Shown here one piece after another: positions 6,287 to 49,538 of a DNA stretch of 64,000 bases. This DNA comes from Candidatus Nomurabacteria bacterium (GTDB taxonomy: Bacteria > Patescibacteriota > Minisyncoccia > Phycocordibacterales > JAACPR01): assembly GCA_020632215.1 (NCBI GenBank), contig JACKFZ010000001.1, positions 17,444-81,443 of the forward strand. Direction: 5' to 3'. The position numbers were made by a program, and so were the translations under genes. Position 1 is the first letter of the stretch; the number at the start of each line of letters is the position of its first letter. A model generated the notes under the pieces. The model ran no database searches. It was not told the DNA's origin and saw only the letters and a program-made list of their open reading frames with translations.

Positions 6287-6455
6287 AGCATAATTTATTA
6301 GAAGTCTTGAAGATGCTTAATAAAATAAAATGATTCACTACTAACTACTATCTACTAACTAGCTTCAATCTGATATAATTATTTGTGTAAGGTCATTCGA
6401 TCTTTTGTTGGTTTTTTGCTGACAAATTTTAATAATTGTTAACTTAATATAAAAT

Positions 6456-6758
6456 ATGAAGTCTACAAAAGGGAAGGGGTTACATGTTGTAACATTCATT
6501 CTTATCATAGTTGGTGCATTGAATTGGGGGTTGGTAGGATTTTTCGGTTTTGACTTGGTAGCAGCAATCTTTGGTGATATGTCTGCTGTATCAAGAATAG
6601 TTTATGCACTGGTTGGTGTAGCAGCAGTTGTTGAGCTAGTTACACACAGAAAGAGTTGTGTCGCTTGTTGCAAAGGATGTTGTGATGGTAAGTGCGGTGA
6701 TCATGGGTCATCTAATTCAATGCCACAAGGGGGTTCTTCTGATTCAATGCAAATGTAA
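6456..6758 (+). CDS. DUF378-family small membrane protein with Cys-rich tail
   Basis: Carries the VGALNWGLVG hallmark of DUF378 plus a C-terminal CCKGCCDGKCGDH cluster. A strong terminator follows. Confidence 0.7.
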   Translation: MKSTKGKGLHVVTFILIIVGALNWGLVGFFGFDLVAAIFGDMSAVSRIVYALVGVAAVVELVTHRKSCVACCKGCCDGKCGDHGSSNSMPQGGSSDSMQM

Positions 6759-6796
6759 TACAAATGTAATATTAGTTGAATATTGATAAAAACCTA

Positions 6797-6826
6797 ACCC
6801 CGCACCATTTTGGTGCGGGGTTTTGG
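6797..6826 (+). terminator. rho-independent terminator
   Basis: ccccgcacc-attt-tggtgcgggg followed by tttt. Confidence 0.75.
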
Positions 6827-7089
6827 TTGTCTTGTGGCCTCAACATCTGAGGAAATTCCACTGATTTATTTTGTGGGACTTGATTCAAAATCCCTTTTGA
6901 AATTATTTAATTGGATTCCTCAGATAAAGATGAGAAGACTATGATAATTTTCCTACTATGAATCCAAGAAGTCAAACCATCGTATGTTCAAAATATGTGC
7001 ATATATTGTTGAAAACTCGATATTTAATGCGGATATGTTAGAATGGCTCGACTTAAGAAACAATATTATTAAAATGACAAGTATTTTTT

Positions 7090-33212: not shown

Positions 33213-33229
33213 TGCTCCACGGGCAGGAT
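33213..33229. repeat. 17-bp direct repeat (attL-like) identical to the tRNA-Asn 3' end at 45049-45065
   Basis: tgctccacgggcaggat occurs at 33213-33229 and again at 45049-45065, where it forms the 3' end of the minus-strand tRNA-Asn. Confidence 0.65.
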
Positions 33230-33390
33230 GCCCTGAATCAAGTTCAGGGCAGGATTCTCATCCTGTCTCATAAAGTAAAAAAGCAAAACCCCAATGCTTG
33301 CGCATTAGGGCTTTACTTTTTTATGCTCCGCGAACTGAGACTAGTTCGAACCTTGATTTTATACTCAGAATCAGTAAAATTAGTCACACT

Positions 33391-33612
33391 ATGAAAACAA
33401 TCGCTCAATTTAAAGTTTTTAAAGATGGGGACTCCTATGTAGCAGAGGGTGTTGATTTAGCTGTGGTTACTCAAGCTGATGACTTAGATGAGCTTGTTAA
33501 AAACATCGAAGAGGCAGTATCTCTGCACTTAGAAGGTGAAAATTTCGCTGATTTTGATTACTCTCAAAAACCTTCTATTTTGGTAAATTACGAATTACCG
33601 CAGTATGCCTAA
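33391..33612 (+). CDS. hicB: HicB-family antitoxin (N-terminal domain only)
   Basis: IAQFKVFKDGDSYVAEGVDLAVVTQADDLDEL fits the UPF0150/HicB fold. It overlaps hicA by 8 nt. Start set at the internal ATG at 33391. Confidence 0.7.
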   Translation: MKTIAQFKVFKDGDSYVAEGVDLAVVTQADDLDELVKNIEEAVSLHLEGENFADFDYSQKPSILVNYELPQYA

Positions 33613-33847
33613 ATTAAAATCACTAGACTCCAAAGACATTATAAAAATCTTGGAGTCTTTTAGTTTTGAGGTAATTTCTCAAAAAGGAAGTCATATAAAA
33701 TTATCTCGCCAGACAAGTCTGCAAAAACAAGTCTTAACTATTCCAAATCATAAAAATTTGAAGAAGGGGACAGTGAAAGCTATTTTTAATCAAGCTAGTA
33801 AATTTGTGTCTAGTGAAGAATTGCAGAAATATTTTTACACAGAATAG
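33605..33847 (+). CDS. hicA: HicA-family mRNA interferase toxin
   Basis: 80 aa with the KGSHIKL (GSHxxL) YcfA/HicA motif. Confidence 0.7.
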   Translation: MPKLKSLDSKDIIKILESFSFEVISQKGSHIKLSRQTSLQKQVLTIPNHKNLKKGTVKAIFNQASKFVSSEELQKYFYTE

Positions 33848-34094
33848 TTCTTAACATGTTCTAGCTTGCTCGCTCTACAGGATGATTTTCTAACCATAGA
33901 TTGGTCCGAAGAATTTAAGTTTCCTAACTTGTCATTAGAAGAAATAAAAAGATTAATTGTTTTAATATAATATTAGTATCTTAACTATATGGTGTTTCCT
34001 GTTGATTACTCTCTATTCATTTTAATCAAACATGAGAAAATTAAACTGTAAAAAGAGAAAGAGCCCAAAATGGGCTCAATCTCTCGGTTAATAC

Positions 34095-34307
34095 TTACTG
34101 GTTATTTATCAGGTCATTTAGTGATTTGATATTGTTTTGTTTGAGATAAGTCCCAAGTTCCATATCAGATCTGACGCCTAAATTTATGCCATATTGTTTT
34201 TCTATAGTACCAATGTGAGTATCATTGCGTTTATCACGTAATAAACCGTTTTGGTTTCTAGATCGGCACCCTTTCATTCCAGCAGCATCATTTTTGCAAC
34301 GCTTCAT
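34095..34307 (-). CDS. hypothetical small basic protein
   Basis: 70-aa ORF inside the island. No motifs. Confidence 0.25.
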   Translation of the reverse strand: MKRCKNDAAGMKGCRSRNQNGLLRDKRNDTHIGTIEKQYGINLGVRSDMELGTYLKQNNIKSLNDLINNQ

Positions 34308-34531
34308 AGCGAATATCTTAAGTTACTTTAAGAAGGTTCGACTAATTCCTTCTGACTGCTAAATGCAGTCAGTTGTCAGCCGCATTTTGGTTGTCAAAAG
34401 GTGAATGTTGCAGTCTAATTATATCAAATTTTATTCCAGGGTACTTTTTGATGAGAAAGTAATAAATTTACTCTAAAATCGGTATAAATATTTTGTTATC
34501 TTAAAATGTAACCCTGTGCTATACTCTTTTA

Positions 34532-34738
34532 GTGACTAAAGAGTCAAAAAAGTTAGGGGAGAACTTCAAGAAATTCCGCATCGAGAAGGGATTATCTCAA
34601 AGTGATGTGGCTGATTCTTTGGGTATTAGTAGGGGATTTATAAGTAATATAGAGAGTGGTAAGAAAAATCCGACTCTGATTACTTTAACTAAACTTGCTA
34701 ACTCAGTCGGTATCTCCATAGATAAGCTTTTAAAATAA
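34532..34738 (+). CDS. XRE-family helix-turn-helix transcriptional regulator
   Basis: LSQSDVADSLGISRGFISNIESGKKNPTLITLTKLA is a canonical HTH_XRE. GTG start lies directly after a tatact -10 box, so the transcript is probably leaderless. Confidence 0.8.
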   Translation: MTKESKKLGENFKKFRIEKGLSQSDVADSLGISRGFISNIESGKKNPTLITLTKLANSVGISIDKLLK

Positions 34739-34743
34739 TCTAT

Positions 34744-37700
34744 ATGACAGTAATCACTAATTCACCAGGGAATACTCTTTCAGATAGTCTTAAATCTATA
34801 TTACCTCAATGTGATCGTGTTGATGCATTGGTCGGATATTTTTATTTTTCAGGATTTAAGGACTTATATAAAGATTTAGAGGATAAATCTATAAGAATTT
34901 TAGTCGGAATGGATATTGATAAGGAAATTATCAATAAGGTATCTCTGTTAGATGATTTAAATCTAGATAGTCATCTTGTTGATACAAAGATAAGTTCCAG
35001 ATCTGGTGCAAAGATAGATTATATAGATTCTTTTTCTAGAATCTTTAATGATACTGATCTGTTTGATAACAAAGAGTCCCAGGAAGCTTTTGAAGTGTTT
35101 TTGTCTAAAATAAAGGATGGGAGTCTTGAGATAAAAAAGACTGCAAGACCTGATCACTCAAAAAACTATATCCTTCATAAAAAAGCAGAACATACAGATG
35201 GTGGAAATGATCCTGGAGTTGTGATTGTCGGTTCAAGCAACCTATCTTTTTCTGGTCTTAAGGGACAAGGAGAATCAAATAGAATGTTAAAAGAAAAACA
35301 CTATTACGAAGAAGATGTCAAAAGATTTGAAGACGCATGGGATAATCCGGACAACATAACGATAACTGATATTGATAGTTCAGATGAATTTATTGCTGAA
35401 GTAAAAAAACGTATTTGGCTCTATCAATTACCCGATCCAAAGTTAATGTATTACCGGGTTCTTGATGAATATTTTTCGGTTGAAGAGACCGAGGACATGA
35501 AGACACCTAGACAGATTACAAACGGTAAGTTCTCTGATCTAAAATATCAAAAGGATGCTGTTAATTTAGGATTAGATCGTATCAAAAGATTCGGCGGGGT
35601 AATTATTGCTGATGTTGTGGGTCTTGGTAAGAGTATTATTGCATCTACTATTGCCCATAACTTAAACTTACAGACTGTAATTATTGCTCCACCTCACCTT
35701 GAGACACAATGGAAGGACTATCTTGCAGAGTTTGATTTTAAGGGTTCTGTTTACACAACAGGTAAGGTAGAAGAGGCCTTGCAACGACATGGCGATAAAG
35801 ATAATCTCCTAATTATTTTAGATGAAGCTCACAAACATAGAAATGAAGACACAGATAACTACAAAAATCTTCACAAGCTTTGTGCAGGTAATAGAGTTAT
35901 GGCTCTTTCGGCGACACCTTTCAATAATGATCCAAAAGATATTTATGCATTAATAAAGTTATTTAGCACTCCAGGACAATCAACTATTAAAACTGTAGAA
36001 AACTTAAGTATTTCTTTCCATGAATTATTTAAGAGATATCGAGATATCAGAAGAGAACTTAGAAAGTCAGCTGATAAGGATGCTTCCGAAGACTCACTAG
36101 AGATTAAGAAGGAGCTCAATTCTATAGCATCAGAATTAAGAAAAATGATAGAACCCTTAGTCATTAGGAGGTCCAGGTTAGATCTTGATGAGATTGAAGA
36201 TTACAAAAGGGATCTGGAAGAGCAGGGGGTAGCTTTTGCTAAAGTTAATGACCCAATTTTGCTTGAGTATGATTTAGGCGACATCACTTCTCTTTATGTG
36301 GAAACTTTGAATAAGATATCGTCCCCAGATGATAGTGATAGTTTTGAAGGTGTGCGTTACAAACCAGCTAGTTATATAAAAGCAGGCTCAAAGTTTATAA
36401 AAGAATTATTAGAGACCGAAGAAGATGATGATTCTGGTATGTCTGCGGAAGAAAAGTTACAGCGTATTATGCAAGGACAGTCTAACGTGGCTAAGTTTAT
36501 GAGGCGTTTATTGGTCCGAAGATTTGAGAGTTCAATGGGATCTTTTAGGGTGTCACTAAAGAATATGATAGCTTCTTCAGAAGCAATGCTTGACTGGTAT
36601 GATAACAGAGGTGTTGTACCTATTTATAAAAAGGGATCTCTGCCAACTACTAGTGATCTCGAAGATAAAACCCCAGAAGAATTAGATGATTTGTTCAACA
36701 AACTAAAAGGTAAAGGGTTAATTGAAATTCCAGTATCTGAAATACAGGATCATTTCAAAGGTGCACTTGAAAAAGACATATCAATACTTAAAGCAATCCA
36801 ATCTGATTGGGTCTCTGTTGAAGATGATCCTAAATATAAATTTTTTGAACAAAAAATTTCCGAGTCTTTGGCCAAAGAATCCAAGAGAAAAATTATTGTA
36901 TTTACAGAATTTTCAGATACAGCAGAGTATGTTTATGACAAATTAAAAGAAGATGGATTTACTAGAGTTTATAAATATAGTTCCGGAGATGCTTCTAAAG
37001 AAAACAAAGAGATTATTCAAAAGAACTTTGATGCAGGATTAGATCTTTCTAAACAAGACGATGATTACGACATAATCGTTGCAACAGATGCTATTTCAGA
37101 AGGTTTTAATCTTCATAGGGCTGGTACTGTGGTTAACTATGATATTCCTTATAATCCCACTAGAGTTATACAACGTGTAGGAAGAATCAATAGAATAAAT
37201 AAAAAAGTTTTTGAAGAACTTTTTATATTCAACTTTTTCCCAACGATGACAGGAGAAGTGGAGACTAGAACAAAAGCTATATCTACTCTGAAAATGGATT
37301 TGATACACTCTTTGCTTGGAGAAGATACTAAAATATTTACTAAGAATGAAGATCTACAGAATTACTTTGCTAAACAATATAGAGAAGAGCAAGATAAAAA
37401 TGAAAGCCTATCCTGGGATGCGAAATATCGAGATGAATGGAATAGGTTTAAAGATGATGAAAATATTCTTAGACAGATAGGATCTATACCGCATCGGGCT
37501 CGTATTGCTCGCAAATTTAAAGTATCTGGGGTGGTTGCCTTCGCAAAGAGAAATGGCAACTTCGTTTTTGCATTTGGAAAGACTCCAGAAGATGTAGCTA
37601 TAGTCTCTCCAGAAGTAGCATTACCGTTGTTCAATGACATTATAGATGATGAAGAGGCAATAGAAACAACGGTGGATTTTGATCCAATATACCAAATTGT

Positions 37701-38037
37701 TAAAGAGCATATATTTAAAGATAATACAAAAGCTCCGGTAAGTGGTAAAAGAAAACAAGATGCAATTGCTAAGTTAAAAATTCTCTCTGAAACTTATCCA
37801 AGTTCAAAAGATTTATGTATGGATGTTATTAAAATTATTAAAGACCTGGATGCTCTACCTAATGGTGTTTTGAAAGAGATTGCAGATTTGAAAATTGATA
37901 AAGATAAACCAGAAAAGGCATACAAGAGTCTAAAAGAATATGTACCAAGTAATTATCTTGAAGATATATTTGAAACTGCTGATAGAGCTAAAGATTCTGG
38001 TAAGTTAGTTGTTCTTTCGGAAGAATTGATATCATGA
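34744..38037 (+). CDS. PLD-family nuclease / SNF2-family helicase fusion protein
   Basis: N-terminal PLD-like HKD-type motif (HSKNYIL...VVIVGSSNLS, i.e. HxK...GSxN). SNF2 motifs I ADVVGLGKSIIA, II IILDEAHKHRN (DEAH), III ALSATPFNN, and helicase-C motifs V/VI (IIVATDAISEGFNLH, QRVGRINRINK). 1097 aa. Confidence 0.85.
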   Translation: MTVITNSPGNTLSDSLKSILPQCDRVDALVGYFYFSGFKDLYKDLEDKSIRILVGMDIDKEIINKVSLLDDLNLDSHLVDTKISSRSGAKIDYIDSFSRIFNDTDLFDNKESQEAFEVFLSKIKDGSLEIKKTARPDHSKNYILHKKAEHTDGGNDPGVVIVGSSNLSFSGLKGQGESNRMLKEKHYYEEDVKRFEDAWDNPDNITITDIDSSDEFIAEVKKRIWLYQLPDPKLMYYRVLDEYFSVEETEDMKTPRQITNGKFSDLKYQKDAVNLGLDRIKRFGGVIIADVVGLGKSIIASTIAHNLNLQTVIIAPPHLETQWKDYLAEFDFKGSVYTTGKVEEALQRHGDKDNLLIILDEAHKHRNEDTDNYKNLHKLCAGNRVMALSATPFNNDPKDIYALIKLFSTPGQSTIKTVENLSISFHELFKRYRDIRRELRKSADKDASEDSLEIKKELNSIASELRKMIEPLVIRRSRLDLDEIEDYKRDLEEQGVAFAKVNDPILLEYDLGDITSLYVETLNKISSPDDSDSFEGVRYKPASYIKAGSKFIKELLETEEDDDSGMSAEEKLQRIMQGQSNVAKFMRRLLVRRFESSMGSFRVSLKNMIASSEAMLDWYDNRGVVPIYKKGSLPTTSDLEDKTPEELDDLFNKLKGKGLIEIPVSEIQDHFKGALEKDISILKAIQSDWVSVEDDPKYKFFEQKISESLAKESKRKIIVFTEFSDTAEYVYDKLKEDGFTRVYKYSSGDASKENKEIIQKNFDAGLDLSKQDDDYDIIVATDAISEGFNLHRAGTVVNYDIPYNPTRVIQRVGRINRINKKVFEELFIFNFFPTMTGEVETRTKAISTLKMDLIHSLLGEDTKIFTKNEDLQNYFAKQYREEQDKNESLSWDAKYRDEWNRFKDDENILRQIGSIPHRARIARKFKVSGVVAFAKRNGNFVFAFGKTPEDVAIVSPEVALPLFNDIIDDEEAIETTVDFDPIYQIVKEHIFKDNTKAPVSGKRKQDAIAKLKILSETYPSSKDLCMDVIKIIKDLDALPNGVLKEIADLKIDKDKPEKAYKSLKEYVPSNYLEDIFETADRAKDSGKLVVLSEELIS

Positions 38038-41000
38038 TTGATTTTAGTAAACCTTACAAAAAAGAAATATTTTCTAATTTCCTTGAGGATTTTCTCCCGG
38101 AAGATTATTCAGAAAAAGAAAAAGAGTTATCCGAGATTTCTGGATGCCAAATAATAAAAGATGTAAAAGAAGTAGGGTATTGTGAATCGCTAGATCTTAC
38201 TGTTTTTGAGATGAGCCATGACAAAGAGACCGATCCCAGAGTTACTATTGCTACAGATGCTTTCAAAATAATGAAGAATTACGATGTTCAAAGAGCTTTG
38301 GTTGTATTCAAGAATGATGATACTGAGAACTATAGGTTTTCATATTTAACTATTGCTTTAGAATTGAGTAAGGGAAGTAAGGTGAAAAAAACGTATTCAA
38401 ATGCACGTAGGTATTCTTTTATACTTGGTCCTGGTGCAAAGATTAAAACACCAGATCAACAATTGGTAGGGAAAGGTAGAGTCAAAGACCCTGATGATTT
38501 ACTAGATAGATTCTCACTAGAAGTAGTCAATAAGCAATTCTATCTAGACATAGCTGATTTTTTTGATGAACTTGTAGATGATAATGAAGTATTGGTACTG
38601 CCAGGCAATGATCACAATTTAAAAAAGAATTTTTCTGTGAGACTTATAGGTCGTATTATGTTTTGTTGGTTTTTAAAACAGAAGTTGTCGAGTGCAGGAC
38701 AACTTGTTCCAGATGAAATATTGTCGTCCCAATCTGTAAAAAAAGATTATTATCATAATGTTCTTGAGCGTCTCTTTTTTGAAGTCTTGAACACAAATAT
38801 TGAGGATAGGGATATAAGAGATAGCTATTTTGACAAGGTCCCTTATTTGAATGGTGGTTTATTTAACCCCGGACCTGATGATTTTTATGATTTGGATAGA
38901 TCCACTTTCAATTCTAAATTTTTCGATAGTTTAAAAATTAATGATGAGTGGTTCAAAGATTTTTTTACACTTCTTGAGACTTATAATTTCACAATTGATG
39001 AGAATACTATTTTCGATCAAGAACTTTCAGTCGATCCTGAAATGCTTGGTCGGATATTCGAGAATCTTCTAGCTGAAATAAATCCAGAAACTGGTACTAG
39101 TGAGAGAAAGAGGACTGGGAGCTATTATACTCCACGCCATATTGTTGAATATATGGTTGATCAATCGTTGTTAGAGTATTTCAAAAAGAAGACAGTTTTA
39201 TCAGAAAATAAAATATCTGCATTGATAAGTTACGATCAATTAGATGATCCCGAATACTTACTCAGTGATTCTGAAAAGGAACAAGTCGTGCAAGCGGCTA
39301 ATCTTTTAAGAATTTTAGACCCCGCTTGTGGTTCCGGTGCTTTTCCTATAGGTATACTTCAAAAAATTGTCTACATTTTACAAGTAGTGGATTCAACAGG
39401 AGAGTTGTGGAGGAATAAAAAATTAGAAAAGATTCCAGAATTATATAGACAAAAGATTGAACAAGAGTTTGGATTCAGAACGCTAGATTATATTCGAAAA
39501 TTAGAAGTCATAAAAAATTCAATATTCGGTGTAGATAATCAATCTATTGCTGTTGAAGTGTCTCGCTTACGTTGTTTTTTAACTCTAGTTGTGGAATCTG
39601 AAATTGATGACTCAAAAAAAAATAGAGGTATAGAATCTCTCCCGAATCTAGATTTTAAGTTTGTGTGTGCAAATACTCTTATTCCTGCTCCTGAAGAAAG
39701 TGATACTGAGACGAATAAACTTTTTAGTGACGAATTCCAAGAGAGGTTGGCAAGTTCAATTGATAGGTACTTTAGTTCTACTGGTGAAAATAAAAGATCT
39801 GCAAACAATGAGATCCATAAACTTATTGATGGAAAAGTAGAAGAAAAAATGCGTCACCTTAATCAACTCGTTTCTTACAATGGAGATCAAAAAGTAGAAA
39901 TAGCAATGGCAAGAAATAATAAAAATCAAATCGATGAACACTCCCGGATACTAAATTTATGGGATAGCTACAAAAATATTTTTGAAAATAAACCAGTTGA
40001 TTTTTTTGATGTGAGATACTTTTTCCCTGACGTAAAAGATGGATTTGATATTGTGATAGGGAATCCTCCGTACGGCATACTTAATAAAAAACAAAACAAA
40101 AGTAAGAGTATCGTTGTTACTAGTTCCGAATTAGATTATTTTAAACATTCTAAAAAGTACAAAGCTGCTAAGGGAGGAATGCTTAACATTTTCAGACTAT
40201 TTATTGTTAGAAGTCTGGATCTTCTTAAGAACGATGGTATTTTTGTTGAAATATTTCCACTTGCTTTTGTCTGTGATTTGACCGCAGTTAATCTTAGGAA
40301 ATTTATTCTCGAAGATACGCAACCTATATCAATTGACGCTTTTCCAGAAAGAGATAATCATAAAAAACGCGTTTTTGAGGCTGTGAAGATGTCAGTTTGT
40401 ATACTGATCACCAGAAAAAGCGCTCCCAAAGAACCATTTTCTCTAAGAATAAATAAGGATAAATTTATTGATTATAGTACACAAAAAACATATCTGGATT
40501 TGAATAAGATTAAAGTTCTGGATGATAAAAATTACAGTATACCTTTAGCATCATCAATTGAGACGGAGCTTCTTACAAAAATTTATCTGAACAGTTACAA
40601 ATTTTCAAAAATTGGAACATGTAATACTGGTGAGATTGATATGACTTTCTGTAAAGAGGCATTTACAGCAGATTCTAAAAATACTCCATTACTTAAAGGT
40701 GCAATAATTGATAGGTATGTCTTAAGAAAAAAAATGAGTCAAGGAGAAATTGTCTATATTGATGAAGAAAAGCTTTCAAAAATAAGAACTATTGATACTG
40801 ATTTAAAAATAAAACCGAGGATTGTGCTACAAGGAATTACTGGTGTAAATGAAAAGTTACGTTTAAAGATGATGATTATAAGTGAGGCTTATTGTGCTAA
40901 TTCACTAAATTATTTAAATTTTAAATCAGAGAGCGAGAATTTGAGATTTATGTTAGGGCTCTTTAATAGCAAAGTCATGAACTTTGTCTTTTCTAGGTTT

Positions 41001-41228
41001 AGTACAAACAGTAATGTTAATGGTTATGAGATTAATAATTTACCAATACCAAAGAAAACTAATCCAGAAATTATTAATAAAATCTCAGATTATGTAGCCC
41101 AGATTATTAGTGATAAAGCTGGAGATGATGTTAAGGATACTTCCGAGTTAGAATGTGAGGTAAACGATCTAGTGATGGATTTATATGATTTAAACGATGA
41201 AGAAAAGGATGTTATAAGAAAAAGTTAG
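38034..41228 (+). CDS. Eco57I/PglX-like gamma-class N6-adenine DNA methyltransferase with its own TRD
   Basis: GSYYTPRHIV, LDPACGSGAFP (motif I), IGNPPYG (motif IV NPPY) and the C-terminal LYDLNDEEKDVI motif typical of Type IIG/PglX/DrmMI-class enzymes. Start overlaps the upstream stop (ATGA). 1064 aa. Confidence 0.85.
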   Translation: MIDFSKPYKKEIFSNFLEDFLPEDYSEKEKELSEISGCQIIKDVKEVGYCESLDLTVFEMSHDKETDPRVTIATDAFKIMKNYDVQRALVVFKNDDTENYRFSYLTIALELSKGSKVKKTYSNARRYSFILGPGAKIKTPDQQLVGKGRVKDPDDLLDRFSLEVVNKQFYLDIADFFDELVDDNEVLVLPGNDHNLKKNFSVRLIGRIMFCWFLKQKLSSAGQLVPDEILSSQSVKKDYYHNVLERLFFEVLNTNIEDRDIRDSYFDKVPYLNGGLFNPGPDDFYDLDRSTFNSKFFDSLKINDEWFKDFFTLLETYNFTIDENTIFDQELSVDPEMLGRIFENLLAEINPETGTSERKRTGSYYTPRHIVEYMVDQSLLEYFKKKTVLSENKISALISYDQLDDPEYLLSDSEKEQVVQAANLLRILDPACGSGAFPIGILQKIVYILQVVDSTGELWRNKKLEKIPELYRQKIEQEFGFRTLDYIRKLEVIKNSIFGVDNQSIAVEVSRLRCFLTLVVESEIDDSKKNRGIESLPNLDFKFVCANTLIPAPEESDTETNKLFSDEFQERLASSIDRYFSSTGENKRSANNEIHKLIDGKVEEKMRHLNQLVSYNGDQKVEIAMARNNKNQIDEHSRILNLWDSYKNIFENKPVDFFDVRYFFPDVKDGFDIVIGNPPYGILNKKQNKSKSIVVTSSELDYFKHSKKYKAAKGGMLNIFRLFIVRSLDLLKNDGIFVEIFPLAFVCDLTAVNLRKFILEDTQPISIDAFPERDNHKKRVFEAVKMSVCILITRKSAPKEPFSLRINKDKFIDYSTQKTYLDLNKIKVLDDKNYSIPLASSIETELLTKIYLNSYKFSKIGTCNTGEIDMTFCKEAFTADSKNTPLLKGAIIDRYVLRKKMSQGEIVYIDEEKLSKIRTIDTDLKIKPRIVLQGITGVNEKLRLKMMIISEAYCANSLNYLNFKSESENLRFMLGLFNSKVMNFVFSRFSTNSNVNGYEINNLPIPKKTNPEIINKISDYVAQIISDKAGDDVKDTSELECEVNDLVMDLYDLNDEEKDVIRKS

Positions 41229-41232
41229 AGTT

Positions 41233-41814
41233 TTATTCTGAAACATTGTATTTTTTTGAAGTAGCTGGAAATTCATAGGTTAGTTTAAGAAGCATTTCTG
41301 AAAAAGATATTAAGTCCTTGGCCTCCTCCTCAGACATTATTAAGATCTCGTGGTTTGCTTCATTGCCTTTTTTTCTAATATGATCAACCCATCCTCTTGC
41401 ATCAGGTGGGACGTAATTATTGCTAGATAAAAATTCAACGTATTCCACAAAACTTTTTCCTTCTTCGGCACCTTTCGATACTGAGATATGCATCAAGAGC
41501 TTTCTGCAACATAAGACTGTCGCTGTAAAAGCATTATTGGAAAAACTGCCCCTGGCTTCTTGGTATAGATGCTTAACTTTTTCATCGTCAATACCCAACA
41601 CATCATCCCCAAACTTACTTCCTGGAGTTTGTTTATCGTTAACATCAAAAAAAGTCGGTTTCTGACAATGATGACAGATATATATAAAAGCTGATTGTCC
41701 AGTATGACTATTTTTTGCTGAATATGCCTTTTCAGACGCCAAAGGTCGGCTACAAAATCCACATGTGTAACTTTTAGAAGATACTGTTTGTATATGAGCC
41801 CATTCCAGTTTCAT
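41233..41814 (-). CDS. DUF4145-domain protein with N-terminal CxxC...CxxC zinc ribbon
   Basis: CGFCSRP...CHHCQKP zinc ribbon, then ATVLCCRKLLMHIS...GWVDHIRKKGNEANHE, which matches the DUF4145 pattern often found with restriction and abortive-infection systems. Confidence 0.55.
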   Translation of the reverse strand: MKLEWAHIQTVSSKSYTCGFCSRPLASEKAYSAKNSHTGQSAFIYICHHCQKPTFFDVNDKQTPGSKFGDDVLGIDDEKVKHLYQEARGSFSNNAFTATVLCCRKLLMHISVSKGAEEGKSFVEYVEFLSSNNYVPPDARGWVDHIRKKGNEANHEILIMSEEEAKDLISFSEMLLKLTYEFPATSKKYNVSE

Positions 41815-41857
41815 ATCTTAATTTTATCATAAAATAAAAAGAATTTAATTCTCTGTT

Positions 41858-41995
41858 TTTCTCGGTCACAACTTCTAGGAAAATATCGGAATTTAAGGGT
41901 TAGTAATGGTCGGGTTTTGTCGGGTAATATTATACGGTTTTATACGGTAAATTCTCGGATTTTCTCGGACAACAATTATCGGAAATTGTCGGAAA
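41858..41995. repeat. iteron-like array of ~10 short direct repeats (consensus t-tcgg-a/g/t, ~10-13 bp spacing)
   Basis: ttctcggtcaca, atatcggaat, tggtcgggtt, ttgtcgggta, tatacggttt, tatacggtaa, ttctcggatt, ttctcggaca, ttatcggaaa, ttgtcggaaa. Confidence 0.45.
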
Positions 41996-42715
41996 AATAT
42001 TAATTTGCAAAAGCTGCTAATATGGCAGAGGCTACAAACAATAGAAGTAGTATTTTAGAGTAATCTTTCTTTATTTGGTACTTTTCGGGGACATGTAAGC
42101 CAAATATGAAGCCTGAAAATAAGATTCCTACTATTGCTCCCATACATACTCCTGCTAAATACATTAATGTCATATGCCTAGTATTTTTATTTTTTAAATA
42201 ATTAGGCTTTCACACAAAAAGCCCGCCACGGATAGAGGCCGAACCTCTCGTACCAGTTTCCTGATACGGCCTATCAAGCAAACCCCATGACGGGTTCTTT
42301 ATGCTTGATAGGACTTTCTTACCGTGCCAAATAAAATTTGGGTTAGGCAATATTATTATTCAGTTGTCCATTCATTCTAACATGTATATCAGAAACACCC
42401 TATGGTCCTTATTTTAAGCCTTTTAATAAAACGATATCGTTTATGTGTCAATGATTATTTACGATATCGTGGATAAAGTCTTAGACCAAAAAACTGTTTT
42501 CTAATACGTTCTAGATACTGAGGGTAATATGTTTGCATTTCCTTTAAAAGAAGAAGATTTCATTACAGATGGCATAGTTAAGTTTTTTGACTTGCTATCT
42601 AGTTTTGACTACGAAGATAAATTAAAAGAAAGATCAGGGTATGATTCCGTTTCCTTAGATCCATCCCCTAGGGACTCGGAATTAGATTCTGATCCTGGGT
42701 GCTAATTATATAAAA

Positions 42716-43510
42716 ATGGGAAAAGGGATGGAAAAAGTAAAATATACAAAAGAATTTAAGAACTGGGTTCCTTTGCAAAGAGACCTTGCTGCTGATAAAA
42801 GAAATGGCAAGATTAGCAAGGGAGAATACGACCTGTATGTTTGGATGAAAACGATCACAAATCTTGAAGGGATAGCCATTGTGAGTTTGGACTCACTTTG
42901 TGAGGATGTTTTTTCAAATCGTGTTAAGAGGAATTATGTGAATCAACTACTTTTGTCACTCAAAGCTAAGAGGTACATATACTATTATCCTAGATCCGGC
43001 AAGAAAGGTTCTTTTGATGTCCATTTTGATAAAATCTTTATATCTGGCGGTATTCTAAAGAATATTGATAGTTTTTTTGACACAGAAAATAATGGCTTTT
43101 CTAATGTTAGACCTCATCAAGAAACAGAGGTTAGTAAGAGCCCTGGTAATGTTTGTAAGAGGTTGTTCGATGAAGAAACTATAAATAAACGTGATATTTT
43201 AGAGAAATTTACAGAAGGAGTAAGAGGTTACGGAAGATATAACGATAACGATACTGATAATAAAGATCGATTATATAAAAATAAAATTACTGTGAGTAAC
43301 TATGATCCACAGATTCCAGAGGAAAAGCTGTGCTTGGTAATTGCAAAAAGGATTGGAGAAAAAAATATGGACTTTATCTTATCAATACTCAAGAAACATG
43401 GAATTGATGTAATTAATCAGGCTTATGAAATTTTTGAGAGAAAAATTAGTGAAGATATAAAAAATCCACCCGCGTATTTCAATGCAATTATTAAAGATTT
43501 GGTAAAATAA
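42716..43510 (+). CDS. hypothetical island protein (possible Rep/DNA-binding protein adjacent to iterons)
   Basis: 264 aa with no clear motifs. Function is inferred only from its position between the iteron-like array and the recombinase. Confidence 0.35.
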   Translation: MGKGMEKVKYTKEFKNWVPLQRDLAADKRNGKISKGEYDLYVWMKTITNLEGIAIVSLDSLCEDVFSNRVKRNYVNQLLLSLKAKRYIYYYPRSGKKGSFDVHFDKIFISGGILKNIDSFFDTENNGFSNVRPHQETEVSKSPGNVCKRLFDEETINKRDILEKFTEGVRGYGRYNDNDTDNKDRLYKNKITVSNYDPQIPEEKLCLVIAKRIGEKNMDFILSILKKHGIDVINQAYEIFERKISEDIKNPPAYFNAIIKDLVK

Positions 43511-43515
43511 AAAAT

Positions 43516-45090
43516 ATGAAAACTATAATCTATGCAAGAGTCTCGTCTAGAGAACAGGAGGATACCGGATATTCTTTAGATGCTCAAGAAAAACTATTGA
43601 AAGAATATTCAAAGAAGAAGGGTTTAAATGAAATTAAAACTTTCAAGATTACCGAATCTGCTAGTGGTAGACAGATACGAAAAACTTTTAATGAAATGCT
43701 TCAGTATGCTGATAAGAATAAGGTAGATATCATTCTCTGTGAAAAAATAGATAGATTGACTAGAAATCTAAAGGATGCGGCTGTAATAAGCGATTGGATA
43801 CAAGAAGATGAAAAACATGAAGTTCATTTTGTAAAAGAGAATTTTATTGTAAATAAAAATACTAGAGCCCATGAAAACTTGGTTTGGGATATGAAGGTGG
43901 CTATTGCCAGGTTTTATACAAACAATCTCTCTGAAGAAGTAAGAAAAGGCCAAAAAGAAAAGATTGCACAGGGTTGGCTACCGACTAAACCACCACTTGG
44001 GTATAAAACTGTGGGAGAAAAAGGTCATAAGATCCATGTGATCGAACAACCAACTGCTTCTTACGTCCAGAAAGCTTTTGAATACTATGGGTCCAGTAAT
44101 AATTCTATTACTGCTGTAACAGAAAAATTATACGAAGATGGTTTGAGGACCAGGGCTGGCGGCAAGGTGGCTAGAAGTAGGATTGAGGTTATGCTAAAAG
44201 AACCTTTCTATTACGGTGCTATGAGATGGAATGATCAAGTGTATTCTGGCAGGCATGAACCTTTAATAACCAAAGAGCTGTTTGATAAGGTCCAGAATTT
44301 ACTGACTAGGAAAAAAGTTCCTCACTACAAGAGTCACAGCTTTATGTTTAGGAAGCTACTTACTTGCGGAGAGTGCGAAGGAACTATTACAGGAGAAATT
44401 CAAAAGGGAATTATTTATTACCACTGCAATCATTATAGAAAGTGTAGTCAAAAAGCTTATGCTCCAGAAAAAGTCGTGGAAGAACAAATTATGGGAGTAT
44501 TTAAGTTCTTTGAGTCGATAACCGAAAAAGAAGCAGAGCAGATTAAGTCTAAAATTCGCCAAAATCACGCTCAAGAAATCGAATATAAAGAGAAGGCATT
44601 AGATGGTCTTAATAATCGCTACAAGGCATTACAGAAGCGTCTGGATGTACTCTACAACGATAGGCTGGATGAACGAATATCTCTAAATATGTGGGAGATA
44701 AAAAATAAAGAGATTGTTGGAGAACAAGAGGAGATCCAAAATCAAATTAAGAAAATGAAAACAGAAGAAGCTAAATACTTTGAAATTTGGCTAAATATTT
44801 TAGATCTTGCACGGAGAGCAAGAGAAATTTATGAAAAAAGATCTCCAGAAGAGAAGAGATTGCTACTAAATTATATTTTTTCGAACCTAACTTTAAAAGA
44901 CAAAAAAGTTATATATTCTTTGACAAAACCAGTAGAGGTATTGGCTAAAAGGGTCCAGGAGAAGTTGGATGCTGAAAAGAGTTTCGAACTAAAAAAAACC
45001 TTTGTAAAACAAAGACGAAATAAGGATTTAGTAGGGGTTTCTACTGCTCTGCTCCACGGGCAGGATTCGAACCTGCAACCAATCGATTAA
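43516..45090 (+). CDS. large serine recombinase (resolvase/invertase N-domain, recombinase domain, zinc ribbon, coiled coil)
   Basis: IIYARVSSREQ catalytic Ser region. Recombinase domain with a CGECEGT...YYHCNHYRKC zinc ribbon, then a long coiled coil. 524 aa. The 3' end overlaps the tRNA-Asn. Confidence 0.85.
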   Translation: MKTIIYARVSSREQEDTGYSLDAQEKLLKEYSKKKGLNEIKTFKITESASGRQIRKTFNEMLQYADKNKVDIILCEKIDRLTRNLKDAAVISDWIQEDEKHEVHFVKENFIVNKNTRAHENLVWDMKVAIARFYTNNLSEEVRKGQKEKIAQGWLPTKPPLGYKTVGEKGHKIHVIEQPTASYVQKAFEYYGSSNNSITAVTEKLYEDGLRTRAGGKVARSRIEVMLKEPFYYGAMRWNDQVYSGRHEPLITKELFDKVQNLLTRKKVPHYKSHSFMFRKLLTCGECEGTITGEIQKGIIYYHCNHYRKCSQKAYAPEKVVEEQIMGVFKFFESITEKEAEQIKSKIRQNHAQEIEYKEKALDGLNNRYKALQKRLDVLYNDRLDERISLNMWEIKNKEIVGEQEEIQNQIKKMKTEEAKYFEIWLNILDLARRAREIYEKRSPEEKRLLLNYIFSNLTLKDKKVIYSLTKPVEVLAKRVQEKLDAEKSFELKKTFVKQRRNKDLVGVSTALLHGQDSNLQPID

Positions 45091-45122
45091 CAGTCGACTG
45101 CTCTACCATTGAGCTACCGTGG
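45051..45122 (-). tRNA. tRNA-Asn (anticodon GTT)
   Basis: The reverse complement folds as a cloverleaf. Acceptor tccacgg/ccgtgga, D-arm gctc-aatggta-gagc, anticodon stem gtcga/tcgat with loop ctGTTaa, T-arm tgcagg-ttcgaat-cctgc. Discriminator g; CCA is not encoded. Confidence 0.8.
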
Positions 45123-45206
45123 AATATAGTTCTCTATAAGTGAACTAGTCAGAAATATTAACAACATTATGGCTTGATGTCTAGTTTTTTGGATTACACA
45201 TAAAGG

Positions 45207-45806
45207 TTGTATAATGAGTATATGATGAATAAAAGAAGTTGGATTTGGGCCATTGTAATAGTTTTGATTGTAATTTTGTCTTTTGTAAAAATTGCACATA
45301 GCCCCAAGACTGATGATGAAGATTTTAAAAATAATTTAGAAAAAAATATGGCGTTACAAATATCTAGTCCTCAATTTGAAGATGGCGGGAACATTCCATC
45401 CAAATATACATGTGATGGAGATAATACTAATCCAGAATTTAATATGAATGGGGTACCAGAAGGAGCTATCTCTCTAGCTTTAATCATGGATGATCCAGAT
45501 GTACCAACAAATTTGAGAGAAGACGGTATGTGGGATCATTGGATTGTTTTTAATATTCCTCCGCAGACGACCAAGGTTGATGAAAATAGTGAACCTGAAG
45601 GTGTTCATGGTAGTGGAACTGCAGGTAATGCAAACTATCGTGGCCCATGTCCTCCAGACAGAGAGCATCGATATTTCTTCAAACTGTATGCTCTAGATAC
45701 AATGCTCGATCTTCCAGAAGGTGTTTCTAAAAAAGAAGTGGAAGATGCAATGAAAGGACACATCATTGAACAGGCAGAGTTGGTGGGTAAGTATAACAAG
45801 AAATAA
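45207..45806 (+). CDS. YbhB/YbcL-family PEBP (Raf kinase inhibitor-like) protein with N-terminal membrane anchor
   Basis: GPCPPDREHRYFFKLYALD is the bacterial PEBP signature. Confidence 0.7.
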   Translation: MYNEYMMNKRSWIWAIVIVLIVILSFVKIAHSPKTDDEDFKNNLEKNMALQISSPQFEDGGNIPSKYTCDGDNTNPEFNMNGVPEGAISLALIMDDPDVPTNLREDGMWDHWIVFNIPPQTTKVDENSEPEGVHGSGTAGNANYRGPCPPDREHRYFFKLYALDTMLDLPEGVSKKEVEDAMKGHIIEQAELVGKYNKK

Positions 45807-45945
45807 ATTCGAAATACGAAGCACGAAATACGAAACAAATAATAAATTGTAAATATTAAACGTGGAGAGTGGTTTATAATTTTGGGTTTAGTGCTTAGAA
45901 TTTGTTTCGAATTTCGATACTCGGATTTTTCTACTGATTAAAATT

Positions 45946-46173
45946 ATGTATATTCACATTAAAGTCACAACTAATAGTAAAAAAGAATCTGTTATTGAAA
46001 TTGATAAAGATCATTTTGATATATCGGTTAAAGAACCTGCTGAGAGAAATAGAGCAAATGATAGAGTGATTGAAATAATCAGAGAAAAATTTCCAGATGC
46101 AAAACAAATAAAAATTGTCAGTGGTCATCATTCGCCATCAAAACTTTTGTCAGTCAATTTAGATGATCAGTAA
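45946..46173 (+). CDS. DUF167 (YggU/UPF0235) family protein
   Basis: 75 aa. VKEPAERNRANDRVIEIIREKF..IKIVSGHHSPSK matches the DUF167 pattern. Confidence 0.55.
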   Translation: MYIHIKVTTNSKKESVIEIDKDHFDISVKEPAERNRANDRVIEIIREKFPDAKQIKIVSGHHSPSKLLSVNLDDQ

Positions 46174-46241
46174 GTTTTGATATAATATTTTTGTAATTAG
46201 GTATTCCTATTTACTATTTACTACTAACTATAAACTAATTC

Positions 46242-46607
46242 ATGTCAATAAATTTTCAAATCAGAACAAAGGATTTAGATTTAACACCAGAGATTACCAA
46301 CTATATACACGAGAAACTCGGTGTCATTGAAAAGTTTGTAAGTCCAGATGTTGATACAGAGATATTGGCACAAGTGGAAGTTGCCCTGAGGTCTAAACAC
46401 CATCAAAAAGGAGATATATATAAAGCGGAAATAGTTTTTACTCATGATGGGCAAAAATATACAGCATCAACAAAAGCTGGAGATGTATTTTCTGCTATAG
46501 ATGAATTGAAAGATGAAATCTCAAAGAGAGTTAGGAGATCAAAGAACAAAGGGGAGAGTCTTTTTAGAAAAGGAGCCAGAGCTATTAAAGGTTTTTTAAA
46601 AAAATAA
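46242..46607 (+). CDS. hpf: ribosome hibernation-promoting factor (RaiA/HPF family)
   Basis: INFQIRTKDLDLTPEITNYIHEKL with the beta-alpha-beta-beta-beta-alpha signature. 121 aa. Confidence 0.8.
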   Translation: MSINFQIRTKDLDLTPEITNYIHEKLGVIEKFVSPDVDTEILAQVEVALRSKHHQKGDIYKAEIVFTHDGQKYTASTKAGDVFSAIDELKDEISKRVRRSKNKGESLFRKGARAIKGFLKK

Positions 46608-46608
46608 T

Positions 46609-47232
46609 ATGAAAAGCAGTTCAGCCACATTTTTAATTTTTGTCATTATCATTGCTGGAGCTTATTTTTTTGTGAAGCAAAATGATTTGGATAAAACATC
46701 AGGAGAATCAAAAGAATTAGGAGAAATTAATCAAGAAAAAAATATGAGTAATCAAATCGCAACATTTAAAACAAACAAAGGAGAATTTAAAATAGAACTA
46801 TTTGGGGATAAAGCTCCAAAGACAGTAGAGAACTTTGTCACTTTGGCCAATCAAGGATTTTATAACAATACAAAGTTCCATAGAATTATTGCTGATTTTA
46901 TGATTCAAGGTGGTGACCCTTTGACAAAAGATGATTCTCAAATGACAAGATGGGGAACAGGTGGTCCAGATTATAGGTTTGCTGATGAATTTGGCGAAGG
47001 ACTTTCAAATGTAACTGGAACAATATCGATGGCCAATGCCGGTCCAAATACAAACGGAAGCCAATTTTTCATTAATGTGGCTGATAATACTTTTCTAGAT
47101 GGTAAACATGCGGTCTTTGGAAAAGTGATTGAAGGGATGGATCTGGTGATGCAGTTGAGCAAAGTAGAGACAGGGGAGAGAGATGTGCCTGTAAGTCCTG
47201 TGGTTGTTGAGAGTGTTTCTATTAGTCAGTAG
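46609..47232 (+). CDS. ppiB: peptidyl-prolyl cis-trans isomerase, cyclophilin type
   Basis: FHRIIADFMIQGGDP and the SMANAGPNTNGSQFFIN cyclophilin motifs. N-terminal TM or signal sequence. Confidence 0.9.
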   Translation: MKSSSATFLIFVIIIAGAYFFVKQNDLDKTSGESKELGEINQEKNMSNQIATFKTNKGEFKIELFGDKAPKTVENFVTLANQGFYNNTKFHRIIADFMIQGGDPLTKDDSQMTRWGTGGPDYRFADEFGEGLSNVTGTISMANAGPNTNGSQFFINVADNTFLDGKHAVFGKVIEGMDLVMQLSKVETGERDVPVSPVVVESVSISQ

Positions 47233-47377
47233 TAAATAGGTAGTAGTTAATAGTAATTGTCGTTCTGAAACTCCGAAAAGCAGGTCTTTCAGAATGTTTT
47301 TATTTATAAAAAAATCCTGCCTAGCTGGCGGTCCTGTCGGACGGCTTAGGGTAAAGCCCCTCGATTTCGCTCGGAGT

Positions 47378-48268
47378 TCAAGATGACGGATAGAGAATTT
47401 CCTTCTTACCTTCAGGAATCACTTTTTTGATGATGAATTTACCACGAGATCCTGAATCTCTCGCCTCATTCTTCGGCTCGGGTTCAGGATGACGGGAAGG
47501 AATAAACTCTGCTTCTGTGATTTTCATTCTCTTACCATCTTTAAAGAAAAAAGTACCAGGCCAAGGTTTATAGGCTTTGTATTTTAAGAAGTTAAGATAT
47601 GGATCATCTTCTAAATTGAGTTCTCCATCTGATTTTTCTATTTTTTCTGTGAAAGTAGCAAGATTATGTTCTTGTTCTTGTTCATCTATATTACCTAGAA
47701 TCCACTCTGGGATAATTTGTGCCAAAATACGTCCTCCATCTCTCGCCAATTTTTCCAAGACTTCCATTTTGTCAGGCCAATTTTCAAAATAAAGAACTTC
47801 CTGATCAAGTATTGGTCCATGATCCATTTTTTCATCCATTCTCATGACAGTGACACCTGTTTCTTTATCGTTATTTAAAATAGCAGTCTCTATTGGAGTG
47901 GCACCTCTGTATTTTGGCAGTAGAGAAGGGTGAACATTTAGTGCCTTATACTTTGGTAATTTTAAAACAGAGTTTGGAATAATGAGTCCATATGATGCTA
48001 CTAAGAATAGTTCACACTCATATTTTTTTATTTTTGAAATAAAATTGTCATCTAGTTTTTCTGGCTGCAATGTTTCAATTTTATTCTCATCTGCCCAAAC
48101 CTTTACTTCACAAGGAGTTAATACTAACTTTCTTCCCTTTGGTCTATCTGGAGTAGTTACTATCAGATCTGGGATGATGCCAGCATTTTTTAATTCTTCC
48201 AAAACAAAAACACTGAATTCATCAGTCCCGAAAAATGCTATTTTTGTTTCTAATTTTTGATTGACCAT
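47378..48268 (-). CDS. fmt: methionyl-tRNA formyltransferase
   Basis: IAFFGTDEFSV at the N-terminus and the HPSLLPKYRGATPIETAI formyltransferase motif. C-terminal extension present. Confidence 0.85.
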   Translation of the reverse strand: MVNQKLETKIAFFGTDEFSVFVLEELKNAGIIPDLIVTTPDRPKGRKLVLTPCEVKVWADENKIETLQPEKLDDNFISKIKKYECELFLVASYGLIIPNSVLKLPKYKALNVHPSLLPKYRGATPIETAILNNDKETGVTVMRMDEKMDHGPILDQEVLYFENWPDKMEVLEKLARDGGRILAQIIPEWILGNIDEQEQEHNLATFTEKIEKSDGELNLEDDPYLNFLKYKAYKPWPGTFFFKDGKRMKITEAEFIPSRHPEPEPKNEARDSGSRGKFIIKKVIPEGKKEILYPSS

Positions 48269-48270
48269 AT

Positions 48271-48345
48271 TCTACATTCTACATTCTACATTCTACATTC
48301 TAAATACTACATTCTACATTCTACATTCTAAATTCTACATTCTAA
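48271..48345. repeat. (TTCTACA)n heptamer tandem array filling the def-fmt intergenic space
   Basis: About 10 tandem heptamers with occasional taaata/taaatt variants. The array abuts the def stop codon. On the minus strand it reads TGTAGAA, giving TAG in all three frames. Confidence 0.8.
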
Positions 48346-49336: not shown

Positions 49337-49450
49337 TCGACACCTTTCTCTTTATCCCGCGGTCACAGGATTCACTCCTCGTGGCCGCTTCGTTTTTATC
49401 TATTACCTATTAACTACTCCGCATAAACTTCGCTATACAGGGCAAGTATT

Positions 49451-49538
49451 CTAAATACCACATTCTACATACTACATACTACATTCTACATTCTACATTC
49501 TACATTCTACATTCTACATTCTAAATTCTACATTCTAT
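49451..49538. repeat. (TTCTACA)n heptamer tandem array abutting the priA-like stop codon
   Basis: A second copy of the same heptamer array (ctacatactacatactacattctacattctacattctac...). Confidence 0.8.

Follow-up and report, generated by a model that had tools for sequence, protein, structure and literature searches.

In serine integrases, control over the direction of recombination is thought to rest on the coiled coil and on a separate recombination directionality factor (RDF). Work on the LI integrase and its DNA is reported to have placed the distal half-site motif 5 bp further out in attP than in attB, and Rutherford and Van Duyne reportedly described this half-site offset for large serine recombinases (LSRs). 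Arrays that grow by accretion, with recombinase-less modules bounded by att-like sites, are known from the CIME/ICE of Streptococcus thermophilus. Broussard et al. are said to have described in 2013 an attP in the 3' end of a coding gene, where the prophage makes a C-terminally shortened protein with altered properties. To our knowledge, very little has been learned about the mobile elements of bacteria of the candidate phyla radiation (CPR). The term integration-dependent immunity is in use for mycobacteriophages (BPs, Brujita, cluster G/P; PMC9635641, PMC9262239). In elements with SSV-type integrases, the opposite end retains the detached part of the integrase gene (PMC8371274, PMC7253208), and a 2021 review treats self-disrupting recombinases as exclusive to archaea and tyrosine integrases (PMC8371274). 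The use of tRNA genes by serine integrases was called previously unreported by Mageeney et al. (2020; PMC7192596), who list 14 of 297 cases in their own set. Here we analyze a stretch of 64,000 nucleotides from Candidatus Nomurabacteria bacterium (GCA_020632215.1, contig JACKFZ010000001.1, positions 17,444 to 81,443), called the window below, in which an LSR gene reads into a tRNA-Asn gene. We propose that attP of this LSR element lies within the recombinase gene, that integration splits off the last codons of the gene, and that the element is the innermost module of a tandem array. As a whole, we consider this explanation probable. It is built on the following features of the LSR element and its target.

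43516..45090, plus strand: LSR gene in its integrated form, 524 aa; residues 1-513 are element-encoded, the final 11 derive from tRNA antisense (Pfam)
45050..45054, no strand: attR core TGCTC, the sole sequence common to attL (J3) and attR when 33860-33880 and 45040-45060 are compared
45051-45123 (start 45051/2), minus strand: intact tRNA-Asn(GTT) (ARAGORN; Rfam 75.4 bits), predicted B arm of attB, T-loop 15 nt from the core
33866..33871, no strand: J3, predicted attL core of the LSR element, TTGCTC, encoding Leu-Leu; the window and three same-species contigs (L014-L016) are identical to 33871 and different from 33872
33872..33970, plus strand: detached tail exon of the LSR, predicted P arm of attP, encoding ALQDDFLTIDWSEEFKFPNLSLEEIKRLIVLI and a stop

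The LSR contains the Pfam domains Resolvase (1.3e-26, residues 4-153), Recombinase (1.5e-16) and Zn_ribbon_recom (7e-8), and all 35 homologues of the family alignment share R8, S10 and the VSS.EQ motif around them. In the public annotation of the genome, the same LSR is represented by the NCBI protein P0111, which starts from an internal Met and comprises 299 aa without the catalytic domain. The gene closes with 13 codons, LLHGQDSNLQPID, that correspond to the acceptor and T arm of the tRNA read as reverse complement. The original prediction had correctly noted that the open reading frame (ORF) enters tRNA-Asn and had explained the overlap as an element-supplied replacement of the tRNA 3' end. 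The overlap measures 40 nt. We arrive at a different explanation: the ORF reads into the tRNA because attP sits within it, and the overlap is not incidental. The attP core TGCTC is located within the LSR ORF and encodes the conserved Leu-Leu at residues 512-513; the crossover dinucleotide would lie within these five nucleotides.

Joining 43516-45054 to 33872 onward results in an uninterrupted in-frame ORF of 545 aa ending in ...LLALQDDFLTIDWSEEFKFPNLSLEEIKRLIVLI, a conserved tail of 32 aa. The sequence to the right of J3, GCTCTACAGGATGATTTTCTAACCATAGATTGG, matches the left end of a related locus (L001) at 30 of 33 positions. This left end lies 7.0 kb upstream of the stop of the L001 LSR, which is 78% identical to the window LSR and likewise abuts a tRNA-Asn. 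The same joining in L001 gives 544 aa ending in ...LLALQDDFLTIDWASEYQYPNLVLQEIRQIL, with the tail ALQDDFLTIDWASEYQYPNLVLQEIRQIL. A search for a long direct repeat in L001 was negative, as the shared sequence is limited to the 5-nt core. We assign 33872-45054 (11.2 kb) to the LSR element, with its left end at 33872.

Nearly all of the 120 best protein homologues carry the two leucines near their C-terminus, encoded by (C/T)TGCTC. What follows them differs: either a stop within a few codons (LLRG-stop, LLRR-stop), or T-arm codons (QDSNLRPIA, QGSNLGHPP and similar), or, in P0024, P0098 and P0105, a tail of the form LLAL.DDFRTIDW..EYP.P.I.L.EI..L. A profile built from eight tails gave a single match in the window (33848-33967, E 3e-20). 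At least 15 further integrated loci also contain a tail exon recognized by this profile, on the same strand as the LSR and 4.8-11.6 kb upstream of its stop codon. The joined state was found in L018, a Logan contig of 6979 nt that has no tRNA and encodes an LSR of 548 aa (P0024, 62% identical to the window LSR) with the tail in frame. Its ends overlap exactly by 30 nt; since this equals k-1 for the assembler, we take L018 to be a circular, free form.

The geometry of the sites agrees with these assignments. In 17 of 17 aligned tail exons, the distance between the core and AAC(C/T) within TTxGAAC, read from the alignment, is 20 nt. The same spacing was found in the P arms of J2, of a second element at the same tRNA (element B) and of a histidine-phosphatase (HisPhos) module, all described below. 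In the tRNA, 15 nt separate the core from the T-loop TTCGAAC. The element-side arm thus copies the T-loop of the tRNA 5 bp further from the core (attP = attB + 5 bp), and this offset supports the att assignments because it agrees with the site architecture of LSRs.

A course of events can be proposed from this anatomy. Modules would have been inserted in succession at the tRNA-Asn 3' end of a CPR bacterium. The innermost of them is the 11.2-kb element; besides the LSR and a LOOT RNA, it contains what may be a replication region and a cassette of defence type (C-protein, PLD-SNF2, type IIG-like methylase, DUF4145). The LSR would recombine an attP within the 3' end of its own gene, with the preceding LSR codons as P' arm and the first ~10 codons of the 32-codon tail as P arm, with an attB at the 3' end of tRNA-Asn. 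In this attB, the acceptor and T arm would form the B arm, and the core GAGCA covers the end of the acceptor stem together with the discriminator and two bases of the trailer. As the sequence shows, the tRNA is intact, the last 32 LSR codons stand 11.2 kb away at attL, and 11 tRNA-antisense codons close the integrated gene; the tail would be translated in the free form only. The convergent, overlapping tRNA could also provide antisense control of the integrated LSR gene.

We looked up the ribosome hibernation factor encoded in the right flank as an exact protein in other metagenomes and thereby obtained contigs of the same species, which are 99.8-100% identical to window 45044-48302. Two of them (L002/L003) share the right flank at 99.8% identity but carry another recombinase in front of the same tRNA-Asn. 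This protein has 550 aa, is only 30% identical to the window LSR and likewise ends in LLHGQDSNLQPID; the cargo of this element B comprises N6_N4_Mtase, ResIII and SDH_protease. Because a different LSR and different cargo occupy this position in L002/L003, tRNA-Asn can be regarded as a hot spot with variable occupancy. This finding also lends support to the earlier claim of foreign DNA integrated site-specifically at the 3' end of tRNA-Asn with the LSR as putative integrase. Relatives with the same gene order and no junction would have spoken against mobility; the opposite was seen, and the varying occupancy of tRNA-Asn favours mobility.

The original prediction treated the whole region as one island between two copies of a 17-bp repeat. 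Both copies are real. The 17-mer TGCTCCACGGGCAGGAT is the reverse complement of the final 15-16 nt of tRNA-Asn plus 1-2 trailer bases and occurs exactly twice in the 64-kb window with up to 2 mismatches allowed (chance expectation: 0 in 100 shuffles). The copies are located at 33213-33229 and 45050-45066, the second having been placed one base off at 45049-45065. We compared short same-species contigs to the window by BLAST and read the composite structure from these matches and from the contig sequences themselves. In this reading, 33213-45054 (11.9 kb) forms a tandem array of modules rather than a single element. Four junctions have the form (T)TGCTC(C) followed by an arm: J1 (33213-33218), J2 (33324-33329), J3 (33866-33871) and attR (45050-45055). 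They delimit three modules, namely X (111 nt), HicBA (33330-33865) and the LSR element (33872-45054). The features to the left of J3 are:

33213..33229, no strand: J1, the outermost junction, with the core TGCTCC at 33213-33218 and 11 nt identical to the tRNA-Asn acceptor/T-stem
33219..33323, no strand: module X, gene-free, 111 nt core to core, with two small hairpins and a strong terminator hairpin (33321-33278) in the direction of the tRNA
33324..33329, no strand: J2, core TGCTCC, then a P-type arm in which TTCGAACC mimics the T-loop at a distance of 20 nt from the core
33330..33865, plus strand: HicBA module without recombinase, containing a degenerate tail-like exon, hicB and hicA
to 33394, plus strand: degenerate tail-like exon of the HicBA module, ending in RELRLVRTLILYSESVKLVTL and a stop
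33391-33612, plus strand: hicB, within the HicBA module
33605-33847, plus strand: hicA (Pfam HicA 2e-15)

The junctions were recognized from the positions at which same-species contigs leave the window. Nucleotides 1-50 of L002 equal window 33281-33330, and the contig diverges right after ttttttaTGCTCC. L014, L015 and L016, from three samples, carry the same HicBA module with the same ends, here beside a His_Phos_1 module; they correspond to window 33281 (or 33538) to 33877 and differ from 33872 onward, where they enter the His_Phos_1 gene. L014 and L016 end in window 33214-33243. Look-ups with the left flank gave only contigs (L005/L006) that also stop at 33243, 30 nt into module X. J1 therefore has two different left contexts. 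In the window and in L005/L006 it follows the host PMT flank, in L014/L016 the HisPhos module. L002 and L014 both begin within module X, and the L002 copy differs from the window and L014 by one SNP at 33311, which suggests two copies of module X in sample SRR26387399.

An island of 11.9 kb bounded by the 17-bp repeat, with HicBA and the rest as cargo and the 17-bp tRNA end supplied by the element, would account for a 17-mer unique to two places and for the classic island signature of an integrase beside a tRNA whose end is repeated distally. Joint movement of the whole array, by use of its outer sites, is also conceivable. However, the same-species contigs diverge at 33330 and at 33872, not at 33213, HicBA has other neighbours in three other metagenomes, and the LSR has its own P arm and tail exon at 33872. 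Moreover, there is no P-type T-loop mimic at +20 in the arm at 33219. We consider a single element very improbable. The 17-bp repeat marks the outer edge of the array only, because internal junctions bound separate modules. The integrase does adjoin an intact tRNA-Asn whose end sequence is repeated at a distal boundary, with 17 nt at the outer edge of the array and a 5-nt core at the LSR element's own boundary. A replacement of the tRNA 3' end thus holds for the LSR element over the 5-nt core only; the 17-bp identity belongs to the outermost junction, that of module X. Likewise, HicBA had been listed as cargo of the LSR element, but it lies outside the left end of this element at 33872 and is found beside the HisPhos module in the three other metagenomes.

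Modules X and HicBA were probably earlier arrivals, and may be remnants or satellites mobilized in trans. For the LSR-less HicBA and HisPhos modules, this view is based on the fact that each starts with a tail-like exon in frame with its core. The apparent second copy of module X in one sample, with its SNP, speaks for mobilization in trans indirectly at most. The HisPhos module (598-1326 in L014, also in L015 and L016) contains the one gene His_Phos_1 and is bounded by the same type of core. It opens with the tail exon LLPLVDEFRTLDWKGIKREVEE.., a second tail subtype common to P0100, L032 and L080. The LSR/tail frame runs open through module X. The leftmost 11 nt of the module repeat the tRNA arm, and its terminator hairpin, at the right end, directly follows GGAGCA in the direction of the tRNA. 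We also considered module X as the left part of either the HicBA module or element B, and neither assignment was confirmed or rejected.

We then turn to the LSR family, for which 1758 homologues were found. The organism names on the listed matches belong to the Parcubacteria group (Paceibacterota, Nomurabacteria, Parcubacteria), and Taylorbacteria join them from the related loci. The host belongs to the CPR and is of the Parcubacteria type. The survey scanned 80 metagenome loci, 6 GTDB loci and Logan contigs and yielded 73 non-redundant LSR genes with a complete 3' end. In more than half of them (39 of 73), the gene runs into the 3' end of a tRNA called on the other strand: tRNA-Asn in 23 cases, Gln in 8, Ser in 3, and Arg, Asp, Val, Glu and His in 1 each. 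At least 8 further LSR genes enter T-arm codons where no tRNA was called. Two such loci contain group I introns (RF00028, 76-87 bits; L008 11700-11933, L021 11687-11927) where the LSR ORF reads into T-arm-like codons. The targeted tRNAs of these loci appear to contain introns, since the Rfam group I intron sits exactly where ARAGORN called no tRNA. The IMG/VR relatives are mostly cut at the recombinase end and added only more cases of tRNA read-through.

Stacking, as in the window, is common in the family. The order LSR1-LSR2-tRNA was found in L057 and L077, and in L012 and L032 the first LSR is followed downstream by a second one at a distance of ~8-10 kb. On long chromosomal contigs, several LSRs keep the tail in frame because a second element with its own LSR separates them from the tRNA. 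A 7-kb NCBI metagenome contig (L017) contains two different LSR genes (97-1785 and 5277-6908), one with a free-form tail; it also encodes DUF3768 together with a DUF87/TrwB-like ATPase, a hint that some relatives may function in transfer. Two relatives with 50-52% identity (L009, L010), one with an in-frame tail, come from metagenome-assembled genomes labelled Bdellovibrionales. Either the family extends beyond CPR bacteria or these bins are contaminated.

The survey also bears on the idea that there is no mobile element at all, and that a host-fixed recombinase, e.g. a domesticated invertase or resolvase, is conserved beside tRNAs. No excision product was observed, and the G+C content of the region equals that of its flanks; neither G+C content nor skew profiles separate the two, and composition is of no help here. 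But a single species has different elements and LSRs at the same tRNA, every locus has its own cargo and flanks, and at least 9 different tRNA types are targeted, among them Asn, Gln, Ser, Arg, Asp, Val, Glu and His. In addition, a circular relative (L018) exists and the tail exons are intact at the far end of the elements. A host-fixed recombinase is therefore extremely improbable.

Is the detached tail a peptide or a binding site? Tail codons 12-31, which lie beyond the att half-site, have a pS of 0.8-1.0 and a pN of 0.1-0.4. The tail frame is open in 17 of 17 sequences, with 30 and 36 stops in the other two frames. From these values we infer that the tail is translated and under purifying selection. 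It would also matter for the enzyme. Selection would act in the free form only, because the tail exon at attL has no start codon of its own. Alternatively, the tail could be no functional peptide: the ORF would cross attP through packing of gene and site, and the conservation would reflect a constraint on the DNA as recombinase binding site. It fits this view that the F-R-T codons coincide with the T-loop mimic TTCGAAC and are for this reason constrained as DNA, that AlphaFold2 places the tail without confidence, and that integrated copies without the tail retain intact 500-aa ORFs. On the other hand, the conservation runs ~60 nt past a normal 25-bp half-site into the region where synonymous sites are saturated and pN stays low, the motif W..[FY]P.P..[SA]L.[EQ][IV]..LL is kept between LSRs that are only 40-60% identical, and of the three frames it is always that of the tail that is open. 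We regard a pure binding site as unlikely, though it deserves to be taken seriously.

What a translated tail would do is a matter for tentative proposals. It may bias or gate the direction of recombination or the stability of the enzyme, the integration state being written into the recombinase itself. In a more explicit and equally tentative version, the tail would be an integration-state switch: the full-length enzyme of the free form would be tuned for attP x attB, and the tail-less integrated enzyme, with its tRNA-derived end codons, would differ in activity, directionality or stability. If so, direction would be controlled in this clade with or without the help of a separate RDF, and exchange of tails between stacked elements would create new combinations of enzyme and tail.

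Several observations weigh against the explanation preferred here, that of a recombinase gene split at its own attP within an array. The first third of the tail (DDF[R/L]T) is constrained as DNA too, being the T-loop mimic, and this part of the conservation is no evidence for a functional peptide. AlphaFold2 modelled the body of the free-form homologue P0024 with a mean pLDDT of 84 and with long paired helices (340-436) after the zinc ribbon, but linker and tail reached only 42-67, with one short terminal helix, and the tail docked on no domain. L018 is the only related contig that is demonstrably circular. Exact-protein look-ups showed no excised form of the window's own element; queries with the LSR, with P0111 as its NCBI version and with the 264-aa ORF upstream of it had nothing on record. 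We searched the GTDB species representatives with the exact 61-nt tRNA-Asn and IMG/VR with a version of 35 nt; there was no hit, and so neither an empty attB nor a close reference genome was obtained. The explanation does not account for the origin of module X, whose left arm at 33219 is not P-type. Finally, the order of modules in other strains was derived from short de Bruijn contigs.

The LSR element carries the following features between its left end and the LSR gene.

34095..34307, minus strand: 70-aa ORF without family match (Pfam, PADLOC, PHROG)
34532..34738, plus strand: XRE/HTH_3 regulator resembling a restriction-modification control (C) protein (Pfam HTH_3 8e-17; PADLOC Control_protein 4e-12)
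34744..38037, plus strand: PLD (HKD) + SNF2 helicase, defence-type (Pfam PLDc_2, SNF2-rel_dom, Helicase_C; PADLOC HKD+Snf2 C3a139 9e-33, DrmD-like)
38034..41228, plus strand: Eco57I / type IIG-like N6-adenine methyltransferase with TaqI_C specificity domain (Pfam Eco57I 1e-24; PADLOC REase_MTase_IIG 1e-68)
41233..41814, minus strand: DUF4145 protein (Pfam 3.6e-9; PADLOC PD-T7-4 5e-7; phrog_1305 1e-20)
41847..41994, no strand: short CGG direct repeats (TTCTCGG, ATCGGAA, GTCGGG, TATACGG), repeat family D2, putative iterons or protein-binding sites
42234..42349, minus strand: LOOT RNA, Rfam RF03000 (80.1 bits; gathering score 46.4)
42716..43510, plus strand: 264-aa ORF directly upstream of the LSR, without Pfam, PHROG or PADLOC match

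The genes named in the original prediction (HicA, XRE, PLD-SNF2, Eco57I-type methyltransferase and DUF4145) were all recovered with Pfam and PADLOC. Its iterons correspond to the CGG-containing repeats, which look like iterons or other protein-binding sites, and its Rep-like ORF to the 264-aa ORF, which exists and has no family match. A role of this ORF in replication or DNA binding is possible; related elements have HTH_36-type ORFs at its position.

A LOOT RNA is present within 11 of the 19 LSR elements scanned, that is, in the window's own and 10 further ones including the circular L018. It is usually located just upstream of the pair of rep-like ORF and LSR, on the opposite strand. The further LOOT RNAs, all with 70-87 bits, are:

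L001, 9121-9240
L008, 4738-4851
L012, 8942-9060
L018, 2907-3025
L021, 4300-4419
L027, 8330-8447
L060, 9459-9579
L074, 1598-1727
L046, 5570-5687
L032, 8382-8506

The LOOT RNA thus appears to be a standard component of these LSR elements, which gives this orphan RNA motif a genetic context. Within the window, to the right of the tRNA, the heptamer ATTCTAC forms tandem arrays at 48269-48344 (10.9 copies) and 49448-49537 (12.9 copies), with the def gene and a 116-aa ORF between them. It is at these arrays that the Logan contigs L002-L004 break.

By its domains and site geometry, the window LSR is a member of the large serine integrases (phiC31, Bxb1, A118/LI, TP901-1, TnpX/TndX). Like them, it combines a resolvase catalytic domain, a recombinase domain and a zinc ribbon with a long coiled coil, its sites have a very short core with the attP distal motif 5 bp further out than in attB, and the recombinase gene lies at the end of the element. 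It differs in sequence, with identities below 30% to all LSRs of GenBank phage records, and its sole sequence match in the PDB is the catalytic domain of TP901-1 (9e-7). Furthermore, it targets a tRNA 3' end, and its attP inside the ORF means that integration swaps the C-terminus. No RDF candidate was identified in the window element, whose att recombination is predicted. The use of tRNA genes by serine integrases has been regarded as unreported or rare (PMC7192596), yet the survey finds it in more than half of the related genes, and the T-loop as distal motif explains how it is achieved.

The array resembles tRNA islands with tyrosine integrases and CIME/ICE arrays in having an integrase by an intact tRNA, fragments of the tRNA end at the junctions, tandem stacking and a strain-variable hot spot. 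J1, J2, J3 and attR are junctions of this kind, and the HicBA and HisPhos modules each carry a tail-like exon at the left end and no recombinase. Unlike in those systems, the recombinase is of another class, the core comprises 5-6 bp instead of tens of bp, and the left ends of the modules carry a recombinase tail exon. Small CPR elements would in this way bring defence systems to a tRNA-Asn hot spot and stack there. In integration-dependent immunity it is the repressor that is split, by a tyrosine integrase and with removal of a degradation tag, whereas here the recombinase itself is split; the XRE gene (34532-34738) is intact and far from the att sites.

A literature search of incomplete coverage found neither a partitioned serine-recombinase gene nor such elements in CPR/Patescibacteria, which is no proof of novelty. 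The closest parallel to the window LSR is provided by the SSV-type 'suicidal' tyrosine integrases of archaeal viruses and plasmids (SSV1, pTN3, pT26-2), which likewise have attP inside the integrase ORF and insert into a tRNA gene, their own gene being divided in the process. Those enzymes are archaeal tyrosine recombinases (PF16795) and are left as inactive N- and C-terminal fragments, whereas the window enzyme is of the serine type, resides in a CPR bacterium and loses only the last 32 of 545 residues, so that 513 residues including all catalytic and DNA-binding domains stay in one ORF. Serine integrases are major tools of genome engineering, and a large natural clade with a C-terminus rewritten by recombination itself would offer a directly testable new control principle. 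Taken together, the window LSR works somewhat like the SSV-type integrases without being one of them, and would represent a bacterial serine-family counterpart to the self-disrupting tyrosine integrases of archaea.

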